From a virus: 46,999 nt of DNA. The translations under genes were made by a program, and so were the position numbers. The stretch lies in the UHGV virus genome UHGV-1362027; one strand, given 5' to 3'. The first letter of the stretch is position 1; every line of letters starts with the position of its first letter. A model generated the notes under the pieces. The model made no database searches and was not told where the DNA came from. It was given only the letters and a program-made list of their open reading frames with translations. Below are positions 1 to 46,999 of this stretch, in pieces.

Positions 1-490
1 ACCCAGTTTGTCGCTGGGTGTACTTGCCTGACTCTGTTTGTCTTATTTCGCCATAATTGGAAGATGATTTTCCACCAGAAACACCTGTACTGGATTGAAT
101 ATTGCAATTAACCACCCCTTGCGGGTTGTATGTTGGTTGCTTTTGATAAAATACACAAATATCCTCATGATTTCTTAGTGGTTGTTTTTTTGCATTTAGC
201 ACGCCTGTTACTTTTGATTTATTCCAGACCCATTGATATTTAAAATTATCCATGTTGCTGACAACGAGAATTGACGTAAAAGGTTGTGAAGCTGTCAATA
301 CGACTGCCCCTCTGCAAACTCTATTATATTCATTCCATATTTTATCTAGCGGGATAATACTATCCCACTTGTTTTGTGTCGTTCCATAAGGCAAATCACA
401 CAAAATCAAATCAACGCTGCCTGCTGGAATAGACTTCATAACTTCCAGGCAATCACCATGAATTAACTGAACACCTTCATTTTTAATCAT
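1..490 (-). CDS. DNA N6-adenine methyltransferase (beta-class, Dam-like), N-terminal 163 codons; ORF runs off window start
   Basis: Minus-strand translation from ATG 490-488 reads MIKNEGVQLIHGDCLEVMKSIPAGSVDLILCDLPYGTTQNKWD... (DPPY-type motif IV, DLPYGT). It stays open to nt 1. The ATG overlaps the TGA of the upstream ParB-like gene (ATGA). Confidence 0.8.
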   Translation of the reverse strand, partial: MIKNEGVQLIHGDCLEVMKSIPAGSVDLILCDLPYGTTQNKWDSIIPLDKIWNEYNRVCRGAVVLTASQPFTSILVVSNMDNFKYQWVWNKSKVTGVLNAKKQPLRNHEDICVFYQKQPTYNPQGVVNCNIQSSTGVSGGKSSSNYGEIRQTESGKYTQRQTG

Positions 491-1299
491 CACATCTTCT
501 CCAGAATTGCCATAACCTCATGAATGTCAGCAACAGGAATCTGGATAAACTCCTCATCCTCTGCCACCACATGACCAGCAGGTAGAATCACGTGGTCTGC
601 TTGCTTCAATAACTCAATCAGATGGTCTACTGGCTTAATCTTTTTCGACTTGAGCACCTTCGCTGTAACTTTGCCCTTACCTTGCGCCTTCGCTTCTTCT
701 ACCGCCTCGTCGATAACTTTAACCGCATCATCGCCATGCTCACGCGTTACTGCTACGGCGTTTGCATAGCTGATTTGCCCAGCACTAATGCGTGCTTTTA
801 CTTCCGCTGGAACATCACCCAAAGACAGGTGCATCTGCACATCAGATACTGAACGACCTACCTTCTTGGCGATTTCTTCATTCGTCCAGCCAAAGCCTTT
901 CAGTCTCGTATAAGCCTTTGCGCGTTCAAACGGGTCGAGCTGCTTACCCTGACTTGATGACACCATGAAGGCGATTTTATCAGCCTCATCGCCAGTGAAG
1001 TCCTTACACTCAATGCGAACGATTGGCGCGCCACGCTCAATGGCACGCAGTGCGCCGAGATAGCGATGCTGACCATCAAGAATGCGAATTCCCTTCTCAT
1101 CAGGAATAACTGTTAATGCTGGCAGTGGCTGACCTGATTCCCAGCACTGCGCGAAATATTCCACATGCTGTTCATCTGCTTCGCGGATGTTATATCCCGG
1201 CTCCAGATAGATTTGCTCCACTGGCACGAGATATGTTTTGTTTACCGCGATGCCGTTGCGCGTCTCTTTGTCTGAATAGATTTTGCTTAGCGTTTTCAT
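490..1299 (-). CDS. ParB-like nuclease domain protein
   Basis: 269-aa ORF with a ParB/Srx-type motif ILDGQHRYLGAL in the N-terminal domain. Translationally coupled to the downstream MTase. Confidence 0.65.
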   Translation of the reverse strand: MKTLSKIYSDKETRNGIAVNKTYLVPVEQIYLEPGYNIREADEQHVEYFAQCWESGQPLPALTVIPDEKGIRILDGQHRYLGALRAIERGAPIVRIECKDFTGDEADKIAFMVSSSQGKQLDPFERAKAYTRLKGFGWTNEEIAKKVGRSVSDVQMHLSLGDVPAEVKARISAGQISYANAVAVTREHGDDAVKVIDEAVEEAKAQGKGKVTAKVLKSKKIKPVDHLIELLKQADHVILPAGHVVAEDEEFIQIPVADIHEVMAILEKM

Positions 1300-5161: not shown

Positions 5162-5878
5162 ATGGCTATTTGTGCAAATGATAAAGGCGTTCTGGTCGGT
5201 CGCATGACCCGACTGTTTCTTGCTGAAGGATGCGGTGACGCAGTTCCGGAAGCAGGAGACTGGAAGTATTTAGGATCAACAACCAGTAAAGGTGTTGACT
5301 ACTCGCCGCAGACCACTACGTCGGAAGCGGATACCGCTGGCGGTTTTGTTTCCACTCTCGTTACCAGCTCTGATATGACCATCAGTGCAGAGGTTGAAAT
5401 CCGCAAGAATGACCCGAGCGATGAATTTGGCTTCCATCGTCTGGTTGAGATTTACGCCACTGAACTGAAAGCGCGTCGCCAGCCTTCCTTGTGGGTGCGT
5501 GAGGTGACTGGTGCGACTATCGTTACCGCGTACTGCAACATTACCAGCATCAGTTACGAAGGCGGCACTAACGACATCGTTACTGGCAGTCTTGAGTTCA
5601 AGGTTTACGATTCTGACAGCGTTACCGTAGAAAGCCTTGAGCCGCTGAAATTCACCACTGACCTGCAATCAACTGGCAGCACTGGCAGCCCGTTAACAGT
5701 TGCTGTTGAAGGTGGCGTCGCACCATACACCTACGTTTGGCGCAAAGATGGTGTGGTTGTTGGTGGTGAGTCTGGCGCATCACTGGCAAACCCTACAGCT
5801 GGCGTGTATACCGTAACGGTGACTGACTCGTCTACTGATCCTGAAATCATCATCAGCACGGCGTGCACCGTGTCCTGA
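5162..5878 (+). CDS. major tail protein with C-terminal Ig-like (Big_2-type) domain
   Basis: 238 aa with GGAGA RBS. C-terminal region PLTVAVEGGVAPYTYVWRKDGVVVGG...AGVYTVTVTDSS is typical of Ig-like decoration domains of siphovirus major tail proteins. Followed by a strong terminator. Confidence 0.6.
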   Translation: MAICANDKGVLVGRMTRLFLAEGCGDAVPEAGDWKYLGSTTSKGVDYSPQTTTSEADTAGGFVSTLVTSSDMTISAEVEIRKNDPSDEFGFHRLVEIYATELKARRQPSLWVREVTGATIVTAYCNITSISYEGGTNDIVTGSLEFKVYDSDSVTVESLEPLKFTTDLQSTGSTGSPLTVAVEGGVAPYTYVWRKDGVVVGGESGASLANPTAGVYTVTVTDSSTDPEIIISTACTVS

Positions 5879-5885
5879 TAAAGAA

Positions 5886-5910
5886 AAAGCCCCGAAAGGG
5901 GCTTTTTTAT
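5886..5910. terminator. bidirectional rho-independent terminator (aaagccccgaaaggggcttttttat)
   Basis: Perfect GCCCC-GAAA-GGGGC hairpin flanked by A-run and T-run. The identical hairpin recurs at 16102-16124. Confidence 0.7.
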
Positions 5911-6086
5911 TCTTTCGGTGGTTCAGGAAGGGGCATCCAGTGGGTTACCCTGCTACGACTGAACCCGTACTTGTCATATATTGCAACAGCATAATCAGTC
6001 GCTGAATGTACAGGCGCGTCCATGTAAACCAGAACTGTAGCACCTAATTCAGGCATCCTATCACCGCACTTAATCCACTCGCTCAT
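5897..6086 (-). CDS. DUF551-family protein (59 aa)
   Basis: Product MSEWIKCGDRMPELGATVLVYMDAPVHSATDYAVAIYDKYGFSRSRVTHWMPLPEPPKE. The WMPLPEPP C-terminus is typical of DUF551. Confidence 0.45.
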
Positions 6087-31818: not shown

Positions 31819-32295
31819 ATGAATTGGAATGAATATTTCTCAATAAAAGAAGATGGATTACACTGGATAAGAGTCAAAACAAACAAACAAAAGACAACCA
31901 AGGCTGGCTATATAAGCAACAAAGATGGATACATAAGGGTTATGCTTGATAGTAAATGCTATCTTGCTCACCGTATCATCTGGGAAATGCATAACGGGCC
32001 TATACCTGAAGGTATGCAGATCGACCATATAAACCACATCCGCCACGACAACAGAATTGAAAATCTTAGATTGGTAAGCAATCAGGATAACCAGAAGAAC
32101 ACAAAGAGAAGCAGAAATAATAAATCTGGTGTAACTGGGGTATGCTGGTACCCAGCATACGAGAAGTGGAGGGCGTACATCTGCATAGATGGAAAGCAAA
32201 TAACTCTTGGGTATTTTTCAAGTATCAAGTCAGCAGCAAAAGCAAGAAAGGAAGCTGAGCTAAGGCATGACTTTCACAAGAACCACGGCGCTTGA
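31819..32295 (+). CDS. HNH homing endonuclease with AP2-type DNA-binding domain
   Basis: HNH motif HINHIRHDNRIENLRLVSNQDNQKN. C-terminal region SGVTGVCWYPAYEKWRAYI..GKQITLGYFSSIKSAAKARKEAE matches the AP2 domain. Inserted between the large terminase and portal genes. Confidence 0.65.
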   Translation: MNWNEYFSIKEDGLHWIRVKTNKQKTTKAGYISNKDGYIRVMLDSKCYLAHRIIWEMHNGPIPEGMQIDHINHIRHDNRIENLRLVSNQDNQKNTKRSRNNKSGVTGVCWYPAYEKWRAYICIDGKQITLGYFSSIKSAAKARKEAELRHDFHKNHGA

Positions 32296-32323: not shown

Positions 32324-33757
<1,434 letters not shown>

Positions 33758-33851
33758 TATAATCATAAATGCAGCTAGTCCGGCCAGACGAAAAGGTGAA
33801 CGTAGACACCCTGCTGCATCCTCAATCTACGAACCTACTACGGGGTTGATC

Positions 33852-34757
33852 ATGGCAAAAAGACTCACCACGGAAGACTTCATTTCTCGCGCCAAGCAAA
33901 AGCATGGCGATAAGTACATTTATGATAAATCTGTGTTTTCCGGGACGAAAAATCAAATAACAATAACGTGCAGAAAACATGGTGACTTTACTCAAAAAGC
34001 GGAATGCCATCTGGTTGGTTACGGATGCGAGCTTTGCGCTAGAGATGTTAGGGCAAGAAAATTGATGGCATCAAATGATGAATTTATCTCCAAAGCTAAA
34101 ATGATTCATGGTGATAAATATTCATATGACAAGTGCATATACTCCGGAAATCACAGGAAGGTATTGATAACATGTCAAAAGCATGGTGACTTTTCACAGC
34201 AGCCAGCCAACCATCTATCAGGAAATGGTTGCCCATCATGCAAACTTGAGCACCTATCAGACAAATTTAGCGACAATAAAGCCTCTTTCATAACAAAAGC
34301 AAAAGCGATTCACGGGAGAAGATACTCATACGAGAAAGTTAATTACGTGAAAAGCTCAAGAAAAGTGTGCATTACATGCCATCTGCATGGTGATTTCTAC
34401 CAGACGCCGAACTCACACTTGAGTGGATCTGGTTGCAATAAATGCACAGCTTATGGGTATAAACCTGCAAGTGTATATGTGGCTGAAATGGACGGGGTGT
34501 GCAAGATCGGAATAAGCAACAACACCAAAAGAAGAATGAAGAGCATATCAAAATCAGCAGGAAAAACTGTTACCGTGGTTGCTGAGTACTTATTCCCATC
34601 ATGGGCTGACGCGAGAAGGGCCGAATCAATGATACATAAAGAAATAAAACATAAAAATGCAGGATTAACCGGATTCGATGGCGCGAGCGAGTTTTTCAAT
34701 ATATCAACCCATGAGGCGGCCGATTTGGTTTTAAAGCATGGAGGTAAAGGCAAATGA
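33852..34757 (+). CDS. T5orf172/GIY-YIG-superfamily endonuclease-like protein with three N-terminal Zn-ribbon-like repeats (putative homing endonuclease)
   Basis: Three repeats of about 45 aa, (K/R)xHGDKY.YDK...SG......ITC.KHGDF.Q....HL.G.GC..C. C-terminal region VYVAEMDGVCKIGISNNTKRRMKSI...AEYLFPSWADARRAESMIHKE matches the T5orf172 family. ORF listed from 33693; the start is taken at MAKRLTT. Confidence 0.55.
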   Translation: MAKRLTTEDFISRAKQKHGDKYIYDKSVFSGTKNQITITCRKHGDFTQKAECHLVGYGCELCARDVRARKLMASNDEFISKAKMIHGDKYSYDKCIYSGNHRKVLITCQKHGDFSQQPANHLSGNGCPSCKLEHLSDKFSDNKASFITKAKAIHGRRYSYEKVNYVKSSRKVCITCHLHGDFYQTPNSHLSGSGCNKCTAYGYKPASVYVAEMDGVCKIGISNNTKRRMKSISKSAGKTVTVVAEYLFPSWADARRAESMIHKEIKHKNAGLTGFDGASEFFNISTHEAADLVLKHGGKGK

Positions 34758-45815: not shown

Positions 45816-45841
45816 CAAAACCCGCATAATGCGGGTTTTTT
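45816..45841. terminator. bidirectional rho-independent terminator
   Basis: aaaacccgcataatgcgggttttttatt. Ends the plus capsid block and the minus accessory operon. Confidence 0.65.
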
Positions 45842-45845
45842 ATTG

Positions 45846-46382
45846 CTACAGACGCATCGGCATAACAACAATCTTCGCAGTCTCGCCAGATGGCGCACTA
45901 AGACAGCAAACTGCGGCATTTGTGTTTCCATTCAGTTCAAATTTGACACCACAGAATTTAGGATTAAATAGCTTTGCTGCTTTCTCAACATCAACAAGGT
46001 AGCCAGCATTAAAGCCAATTTCCTCTGCTGCTTTAGTTTCTTTTGGTATCACGCGGTCAATATCAGGGAATCTACCATCAATCTCTTCGCAGATACCAGC
46101 ACCAACCATCTCGCCAGCCTCATCATGATACGTCGCAATTTTCGACTTGGTATCAATGATGGCGTACTCATAACGTTTTGTTGGTGACTTTCCAATCTTG
46201 ATAATCACATTTTCTGTCAGCTTGTTGTCATGACTGCCACCAATGAATGCGCGATGACCGTCAGTTGACGCAATGCGACCATCAAGCATAAAGCAGATGC
46301 CGTTCAGGTAGTAGCGCACATCATTGCGCGCCTGAAAGATTAATGCTGACTCAAGTAATAATTTACTGATTTTTAGTTTCAT
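45846..46382 (-). CDS. truncated beta sliding clamp homolog (DnaN domain II-III only, 178 aa)
   Basis: [26 protein letters not shown] aligns with E. coli DnaN [43 protein letters not shown] aligns with DGRFPDYRRVLPKN. The C-terminus VVMPMRL is identical to the DnaN C-terminus (from memory of the E. coli sequence). Confidence 0.65.
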   Translation of the reverse strand: [178 protein letters not shown]

Positions 46383-46594
46383 TCAACCACCTCGCATTCA
46401 TTTATGGAAATAAGAATAGTGTCGCCATTTCTATGGTCAAGGCATTCATATCCGATACCATAATCACAAATCACATCAAGAACATCACCTATATTAAAGC
46501 CAAACTGAGCCATGCATCCTTCATGTTCTTCATCAGAGTAATCCAGATTTGTGATTCTTACTTTCTTTGATGCCTTCATATATTCTGCCATCAC
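46379..46594 (-). CDS. hypothetical protein (71 aa)
   Basis: Compact ORF coupled to its neighbours. Confidence 0.3.
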   Translation of the reverse strand: MMAEYMKASKKVRITNLDYSDEEHEGCMAQFGFNIGDVLDVICDYGIGYECLDHRNGDTILISINECEVVE

Positions 46595-46764
46595 TTCACC
46601 TTAATCATGTGCTGTTTTGCAACTTTCAGGCATTCTTCAAAAATGCCACCCTTCTTTGCGCTCTGATTGCGCTTGTAATACTGGATTGCCGCTTCAATTG
46701 CCATCTGGTCTATGTCAGGTAGCTTGGCTCGCAGCTGTTTTTCGATGAATTGTTCGGCGTTCAT
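46595..46764 (-). CDS. hypothetical protein (about 58 aa)
   Basis: Product [60 protein letters not shown] overlaps the MTase stop. Confidence 0.3.
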
Positions 46765-46999
46765 CCTAAAATCCTTTTTTTGGCTATTTCAAAATATTTA
46801 TCATCTTTTTCGATTCCGATAAACCTGCGCCCTGTATTCACGCAGGCAACGCCGGTGGTTCCGCTGCCCATGCAGTTATCCATGACTGTGTCGCCTTCAT
46901 TGGTGTACGTCTTGATCAGGTATTCCATCAGCGCGACTGGTTTTTGTGTTGGATGTACAGTCTTACCCTCTGATGCAATTGACAAAACAGACCTTGGAT
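46761..46999 (-). CDS. DNA N6-adenine methyltransferase (beta-class), C-terminal part; ORF runs off window end
   Basis: ...[47 protein letters not shown].. (TQKP motif and FxGxG-type AdoMet motif I). Reading frame stays open to nt 46999. Confidence 0.8.

Follow-up and report, generated by a model that had tools for sequence, protein, structure and literature searches.

The bacterial beta sliding clamp DnaN (Escherichia coli P0A988; PDB 2POL and 1MMI) is a protein of 366 residues and three domains, and its peptide-binding pocket serves as the central docking point that gives bacterial polymerases, enzymes of repair, regulators of replication, transposases, some toxins and, reportedly, RecBCD their access to DNA, besides being a target for antibiotics. 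A short form of this clamp had already been noticed in phages, by annotators, who entered it as 'DNA Pol III b subunit fragment' (Bcep43 gp15) or 'possible moron' (SO-1 gp7), and by Kazlauskas and Venclovas (2011, NAR 39:8291, PMC3201878), who described short phage polIII-beta homologues covering 'the second and third domains' and assigned them no function. Here we analyse a gene of this kind in the UHGV virus genome UHGV-1362027, a stretch of 46,999 nucleotides that we call the window. Its product, which almost certainly belongs to the family described in 2011, has 178 residues, lacks the ring interface of DnaN and has lost one inner helix; what it retains is the two-subsite hydrophobic pocket for clamp-binding motifs. 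The gene and the parts of its product are the following:

45846..46382, minus strand: the clamp-like gene, 178 aa, an open reading frame (ORF) from ATG to TAG with its stop codon at 45846-45848, taken from the ORF listing and a coordinate check
46080..46382, minus strand: aa 1-101, the equivalent of DnaN domain II (about DnaN 127-237), from the secondary structure of the AlphaFold2 (AF2) model and alignments to DnaN 136-240
46299..46322, minus strand: DVRYYLNG, aa 21-28, with pocket residues R23 (DnaN R152) and L26 (L155)
46251..46265, minus strand: TDGHR, aa 40-44, with pocket residues T40, G42, H43 and R44 (DnaN T172, G174, H175 and R176)
46167..46193, minus strand: loop GKSPTKRYE, aa 64-72, which replaces the second domain-II helix (DnaN ~197-208) and contains no helix in the AF2 model
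46023..46079, minus strand: interdomain connector, aa 102-120, with pocket residues P106, R110 and V111 (DnaN P242, R246 and V247)
45849..46022, minus strand: aa 121-178, a single beta-alpha-beta-beta-beta unit equivalent to the C-terminal half of DnaN domain III (316-366) and ending in VVMPMRL

The relationship to DnaN is supported both by sequence and by structure prediction. A phmmer search of all PDB chains matches enterobacterial beta clamps (E 1.3e-13 to 4.4e-13); identity to E. coli DnaN is only ~35% over aligned residues. The AF2 model, computed from a 139-sequence alignment, is confident (mean pLDDT, the predicted local distance difference test score, 96.5; pTM, the predicted template modelling score, 0.90), and the 50 top Foldseek matches in the PDB are beta clamps without exception (50/50). 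An earlier note on this DNA, made from the letters alone, had recognized a DnaN fragment and named structure prediction as one way to check it, and the confident clamp fold bears it out. The sequence blocks it had cited are all in place (the two listed above and a further one at aa 102-113), and the C-terminal VVMPMRL is indeed identical to that of E. coli DnaN in the alignment.

The extent of the truncation had been described less accurately, as a protein of domains II and III only. Domain I is gone, as claimed, but domain II, thought to be partly missing, is essentially complete: its first beta-alpha-beta-beta-beta unit is whole and its second has lost nothing but the helix. It is domain III that has been halved. 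The assignment of the C-terminal unit follows from the match to PF02768, which covers profile positions 68-121 of 121, from a second phmmer stretch that aligns residues 118-178 to DnaN 313-366, and from MAFFT; compared with DnaN, the deleted parts are thus domain I and the N-terminal half of domain III (~DnaN 254-312). The protein consists of 1.5 clamp domains, made up of three beta-alpha-beta-beta-beta units of which one lacks the helix, and this refines the 2011 description: these 1.5 domains are the minimal pocket. The earlier note had also suggested a survey of related phages for the same truncated gene, and the architecture turns out to be common to the 139 diverged family members on which we measured conservation. 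Everywhere at most 40 residues precede the position of D21 (149 in DnaN), and P106 and N125 are separated by 17-25 residues (77 in DnaN). The segment that stands for helix 2 is nine residues long in 103 of the 139 and contains a proline in 82%.

What has been spared is the pocket. We took the residues of its subsites I and II, and those of the dimer interface, from a 2024 review (PMC11139829). All 18 pocket residues of that list fall in the retained segments, the C-terminal unit alone holding N125, Y128, V172, M174, P175, M176 and R177, and the window protein has the E. coli residue at all but two of them (16 of 18), the exceptions being L177, changed to A, and V344, changed to T. Across the family, nine are at least 90% invariant (in DnaN numbering R152, L155, T172, G174, H175, P242, Y323, M362 and P363), with values of 97% for R23, 94% for L26, 91% for T40, 99% for G42, 94% for H43 and 99% for P106; N320 (75%) and R365 (86%) follow. 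R246, V247 and V360 are conservatively replaced, and R176, L177, M364 and V344 are variable, the last of these varying among true clamps too (PMC11139829). The most common residue reaches a mean frequency of 0.73 at pocket positions and 0.37 at the other 160, a difference attained in none of 100,000 permutations. The clamp-binding-motif pocket that the earlier note had located in this fragment has therefore been left whole, and by MAFFT alignment and permutation test no other part of the protein is as well conserved.

The residues that close the ring have met the opposite fate. The dimer interface of DnaN is formed by I272, L273, E298 and E304 of domain III and their domain I partners I78 and F106 (PMC11139829), and these six positions all lie within segments deleted in 139 of 139 members. 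The retained arc is the minimal contiguous piece that forms the peptide pocket, and the ring-making parts are gone.

The gene is widespread and appears to be maintained. A search of 1.84 billion representative proteins returned 191 clusters (50% identity) at E <= 1e-10, nearly all in the size class of 170-215 aa, and 133 of the best 150 representative matches are 160-220 aa long. With tblastn the gene was found in 289 phage records, full length in 283, from phages of Salmonella, Escherichia, Klebsiella, Vibrio, Burkholderia, Proteus and Acinetobacter; Bcep43 gp15 and SO-1 gp7 are among the direct matches. The BASEL phages Bas77-81 have the gene as well. A search for related loci seeded with a 39-sequence subset returned mostly close relatives. 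In a set of 89 related loci the ORF is intact in 87. The two remaining copies carry in-frame stops, at codon 69 in PEi21 (locus L006, 3501-4031) and at codon 80 in locus L031 (6001-6537); possible explanations are errors of sequencing, pseudogenes and sites of read-through. For 868 pairs from the Jersey-like clade, the ratio of nonsynonymous to synonymous substitution rates (dN/dS) has a median of 0.114, and for 147 pairs from a lambdoid clade the median is 0.124. Judged from its sequences, the gene is a truncated DnaN relative under purifying selection.

How could a clamp that has lost its ring be useful to a phage? The reading that we favour, with a probability of about 0.45, is that it would be a soluble, ring-incompetent sponge for clamp-binding motifs. 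The protein would then be a beta clamp pruned to the pocket arc, which comprises domain II and the second half of domain III, while domain I, one of the channel-lining helices and the N-terminal domain-III half that carries the dimer interface have been discarded. Such a soluble module, forming no canonical ring, would bind clamp-binding motifs (QLxLF- or QxxLxF-type peptides) and, as a decoy, would compete with the DNA-loaded beta clamp of the host for single-motif ligands. Candidate ligands on the host side are RecB, MutS/MutL, Hda and Pol II/IV/V; among pocket-directed toxins of defence or toxin-antitoxin systems, SocB and Rosmer-family RipA could be considered. Being monovalent, the competitor would be felt more by clients that depend on a single motif than by the Pol III replicase, whose anchoring is multivalent and which would be largely spared. 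Sequestration of clamp-binding proteins, already raised in the earlier note, is the best-supported part of what that note proposed, to judge from the conservation of the pocket.

Several lines of reasoning favour a sponge: (i), the pruning strips ring and channel elements and spares the pocket only; (ii), the protein has no conserved phage partner, as clustering of the neighbouring genes at the 89 loci, which represent 14 clades, revealed no family present in more than four clades and thus no obligate partner gene; (iii), the gene acts like a mobile accessory gene, often adjoining methyltransferases. It is also carried by phages that lack a polymerase, by one that encodes its own (PEi21) and by a T4-like phage, so that a universal host-side ligand would be more parsimonious than a phage polymerase. 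There is also precedent for pocket ligands of importance to phages: RecB binds the clamp pocket and requires this contact to degrade DNA fully (preprint 10.1101/2025.08.20.671105), SocB and the Rosmer-family toxin RipA act on the pocket, where suppressors map (PMC12795458), and an excess of the motif-bearing protein MuC disturbs Hda-clamp function (PMC12867686).

A more specific version, which we advance as speculation and consider unlikely, is that the protein represents a new type of counter-measure used by phages, a 'clamp-pocket sponge' derived from a host replisome protein, that soaks up clamp-directed toxins of abortive-infection or toxin-antitoxin systems (SocB-like, Rosmer RipA-like) and/or deprives the host clamp of RecB and similar antiviral clients. 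If true, it would protect phage DNA and replication, and it would explain why the pocket is kept while the rest drifts, why the gene behaves like a mobile accessory gene found by methyltransferases, and why it is present whether or not the phage has its own replisome.

The genome that carries the gene provides the setting in which these proposals have to be weighed. The window is a phage genome, complete and circularly permuted. It belongs to a Jersey-like (Guernseyvirinae-type) siphophage and shares ~92% identity with Escherichia phage C1 in the region that was compared; a methyltransferase ORF of 242 aa runs across the window junction and is intact only when the window end is joined to the start. 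Its replication genes encode a Prim-Pol/PriCT/D5-type primase-helicase, an SNF2-type helicase, an AAA_24 (Sak4-like) ATPase and a DUF669 protein; no DNA polymerase of family A, B or C and no clamp-loader gene is present in the genome, so that the phage must rely on host Pol III. A split clamp, with the missing domain I or half-domain encoded elsewhere, was sought in all stop-to-stop frames with E. coli DnaN (phmmer) and with a hidden Markov model of the family, and nothing scored below E = 0.5. PADLOC found no defence-system match, and a scan of the phage proteome for clamp-binding motifs gave no credible one. The sequence QMHLSL of the ParB-like protein (490..1299, aa 155-160) fits the hexameric clamp-binding consensus and is kept by 49 of 50 relatives, all of them close; it was rejected as evidence of a phage-encoded ligand, lying inside the helix-turn-helix (HTH) domain (Pfam residues 120-202) and occurring at a frequency consistent with chance, and is probably structural and no docking motif. 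In the head and packaging region, two homing-endonuclease-type ORFs flank the portal gene (33693..34757 and 31819..32295, both on the plus strand), one coding for a T5orf172/MUG113-domain protein and one for an HNH_3/AP2 protein.

Around the clamp-like gene lie the following features:

46387..46393, minus strand: GAGGTGG, Shine-Dalgarno sequence of the clamp-like gene, 4 nt upstream of its ATG
45817..45839, both strands: bidirectional intrinsic terminator with a 10-bp stem and T-runs on both strands
46379..46594, minus strand: 71-aa ORF upstream of the clamp-like gene, phrog_5684, function unknown; its stop overlaps the clamp-like ATG (ATGA), so that the two are translationally coupled
46591..46764, minus strand: 57-aa ORF of the same operon, phrog_4439, function unknown
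46761..46999, minus strand: 3' part of an N6/N4 DNA methyltransferase that continues into 1..490 (PF01555, E 6.6e-29)
490..1299, minus strand: ParB-like DNA-binding protein, 269 aa (PF17762 HTH_ParB, E 2.5e-11; phrog_1033, E 1e-90)

Together with a 213-aa gene (phrog_2260) these form a minus-strand operon that separates the head genes from the tail genes, in the order 213 aa, ParB-like, N6/N4 methyltransferase, 57 aa, 71 aa and clamp-like gene, the last four joined by 4-nt ATGA overlaps. The clamp-like gene is its final gene, and directly 3' of it the terminator closes both the operon and the plus-strand head-gene block; the phage Skate record annotates the same terminator feature. The earlier note had placed a 178-aa gene at 45846-46382, as the last of a minus-strand ParB-methyltransferase accessory operon outside the replication module, and on both counts the ORF listing, the coordinate check and the operon annotation agree with it. 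The 57-aa ORF is present in 48 related loci; the 71-aa ORF is not present in Skate. A weak match of the latter to DnaN 307-328 (E = 1) was followed up and discarded, the hhalign probability being 0.2%; the 71-aa ORF is context only and no partner of the clamp-like protein.

In other phages the gene occupies very different positions. Structural modules of Naesvirus (Bcep43 gp15), Dhillonvirus (SO-1 gp7), Kagunavirus and Gorganvirus contain it as a single gene on the opposite strand; such insertions in the middle of the late head or tail block are seen in Bcep43 (L002, 3998-4579), SO-1 (L003, 3992-4510), Escherichia phage 26 (L008, 3462-3983) and Proteus phage Isfahan (L090, 2998-3495), and their recurrence in four unrelated genera suggests a promoter of its own and, probably, an expression timing unlike that of the neighbours. 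It directly adjoins methyltransferases and a primase in IME_EC2 and IME279, is close to Dam and SSB in Vibrio XM1, and follows exo, RecT and an MT-A70 methylase, with an integrase adjoining, at locus L058. At locus L085 it comes after a DnaT-domain protein and RusA (5558-5920), and its neighbours in a T4-like phage are small genes of early type. Two lambdoid clades (28 loci) have it between cII and the genes for an O-like protein and DnaB helicase, a case in which it does belong to a replication module; a role as loader for the primase/helicase, which the earlier note had also put forward, would be a further conceivable function. PEi21 encodes its own DNA polymerase directly upstream of the stop-disrupted copy.

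Methyltransferases of differing families (PF01555, MT-A70, Dam-type, Dcm) lie at most two genes from the clamp-like gene in four independent lineages: in the window (46761..46999 and 1..490), in IME_EC2 (L004, 3316-3957 and 4782-5522), in IME279 (L092, 2259-2960), in XM1 (L005, 4880-5545) and at L058 (4883-5545). In Bcep43 and Morganella phage vB_Mm5 they are 3-4 kb away. This proximity is suggestive of a shared DNA-protection or accessory module. In vB_Mm5 (L089, 3928-5328), which is T4-like, the clamp-like gene stands two genes upstream of a nicotinamide phosphoribosyltransferase. NAD-salvage genes of this kind have been linked to countering NAD-depleting defences, and the vB_Mm5 neighbourhood would fit an accessory or counter-defence setting.

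Several points weigh against a sponge. Its monomeric state is assumed, from the loss of the canonical interface only. Affinities between motif and pocket are typically micromolar, so a sponge needs high expression. It might likewise tie up Pol III or the delta subunit, on which this phage depends. Moreover, the family is neutral to basic: the isoelectric point (pI) of the window protein is 7.6 and the family median 8.25 (interquartile range 6.8-8.8), compared with 5.25 for DnaN, and lysine or arginine is kept on the two remaining helices, at K134 in 82% and at K137 in 65% of the family. By the criterion of Kazlauskas and Venclovas (PMC3201878), a raised pI and retained Lys/Arg residues hint that the protein contacts DNA directly, something not required of a pure decoy. 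Finally, the gene is the first of the lambdoid replication block (cII, clamp-like gene, O-like gene, DnaB) and adjoins the primase in IME_EC2 and IME279, positions that favour a positive role in replication.

The last two of these points also recommend the alternative that survives best, though we regard it as unlikely: the protein could be a non-ring, loader-independent tether or adaptor whose basic helices bind DNA and whose pocket keeps a polymerase with a clamp-binding motif at the replication forks of the phage, much as herpesvirus UL42/UL44 do. This polymerase would be the host Pol III core where the phage has none, as in the window, whose phage must use host Pol III, and otherwise the phage polymerase. 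A conserved pocket is expected here too; the higher pI and the K/R residues of the retained helices would match the criterion for non-ring factors that dispense with a clamp loader (PMC3201878), and the gene lies where a replication factor might, between cII and O-like/DnaB genes in the lambdoid clades, directly after a DNA polymerase in PEi21 and by a primase in IME_EC2 and IME279. However, one of the three channel-lining helices has been lost family-wide, the opposite of the selection expected for a DNA tether, and 37% of the members have a pI below 7.5. The PEi21 copy that adjoins a polymerase is the stop-disrupted one, many virulent phages carry the gene outside the replication module, and it occurs in a T4-like phage, from a group whose members normally encode their own replisome.

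Alternatively, the pocket might serve as a receptor for motif-bearing regulators encoded by the phage itself, for example the Q-x-x-M-x-F tail of the CII-like activators encoded upstream, which it would stabilize or localize; we hold this to be improbable. CII-type ORFs at loci L059, L060, L069, L073, L074 and L080-L084 end 3-46 nt before the clamp-like gene (at ~6001) or overlap it, and C-terminal tails such as QVTMNF, QIDMHF, QISMEF, QVTMDF, QITINF and QFTINF fit or nearly fit the hexameric clamp-binding consensus. Lambda CII itself ends in QIQMEF, the sequence that marks it for FtsH degradation. CII-type regulators may have a connection with the clamp pocket that has so far gone unrecognized: 11 of the 28 CII-like proteins immediately upstream end in Q-phi-x-[M/I]-x-F, and the case of MuC (PMC12867686) demonstrates that clamp-binding motifs can be employed by transcription factors of phages. 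But the other 17 lack the motif, virulent carriers including the window phage have neither CII nor a credible motif-bearing protein, and no neighbour family is conserved across clades.

Quite improbable, in our view, is a true sliding clamp made by homo-oligomerization, in which the orphan half-domains would pair about a pseudo-twofold axis and four copies would close a ring, comparable to the trimer reported for E. coli beta*. The arithmetic is attractive, four times three units giving the 12 of beta2 or PCNA3, and a lone half-domain would otherwise expose its intradomain face. Such a ring, however, would lack the inner helix in one unit out of three and would present pockets on both faces, a mismatch with any known clamp loader in a genome that has no loader gene, and it is without precedent. 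Very little speaks for heterodimerization with host beta through the domain-III interface, by which the fragment would poison or re-target the host clamp as the earlier note had proposed: general homology to DnaN is all that recommends it, I272, L273, E298 and E304 fall in the segment deleted in 139 of 139 members, and domain I, the other half of the interface, is gone too. That the gene is a recently captured, decaying and functionless host fragment, the scenario of stop-disrupted relatives against which the earlier note had cautioned, has practically no chance of being right, the in-frame stops in two of 89 loci (PEi21, L031) being outweighed by 87 intact copies, a dN/dS of 0.11-0.12, 191 diverged clusters, an identity to E. 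coli DnaN of only ~35%, and an identical architecture family-wide.

The carriers number in the hundreds, among phages of Salmonella, E. coli, Klebsiella, Vibrio and Burkholderia, and include groups commonly proposed for therapy. A phage protein reduced to the pocket would be a natural, evolution-optimized competitor for all the ligands that use it, and the identity of its own ligand would reveal a new strategy of host takeover or anti-defence. As a minimal stable scaffold of the pocket it could find use in screens for inhibitors, and clamp interactions could be probed with it inside cells.

A correct name also matters, given that a mis-annotation is now propagating through phage genomes. The protein stays below the curated DnaN cut-offs (TIGR00663, 36.4 bits against 137.65; PF02767 and PF02768, 17.5 and 17.4 against 27), and a Pfam search gave no match to PF00712, DnaN domain I. 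It matches phrog_3007 end to end (E 1.8e-63, residues 1-178 on profile positions 1-186 of 190), and this family is labelled 'RusA-like Holliday junction resolvase', hence the name in RefSeq and Pharokka-style records (H2, H6, H8 and others); further records say 'DNA polymerase' or 'DNA polymerase III beta subunit'. A RusA-like identity was considered and rejected: no match to RusA (PF05866) appears at E <= 1 and the fold is that of a clamp. At L085 the genuine RusA (PF05866, E 3.6e-15) is the neighbouring gene. All three database names are inaccurate.

The literature that we searched contains no functional study of a short phage clamp, and the closest comparisons come from other systems. One is beta*, reportedly a 26-kDa, ultraviolet-inducible product of an internal start in dnaN that Skaliter, Paz-Elizur and Livneh are said to have described in 1996 (J Biol Chem) as a trimeric ring supporting Pol III. 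It resembles the phage protein in starting near DnaN M135, without domain I (K7 of the phage protein aligns to K136), but keeps all of domain III, half of which, including the interface, the phage protein has lost. The herpesvirus proteins UL42, UL44, BMRF1 and PF-8 share with it a clamp fold without ring-forming interfaces; they differ in size and ancestry, with two complete domains and no sequence relation to DnaN, and they bear a pronounced basic DNA-binding face. Lastly, phage Twort gp168 (PDB 7EVP), Caulobacter SocB and pneumococcal Rosmer RipA bind the host clamp, whereas the phage protein mimics the pocket of the clamp and would act on its ligands.

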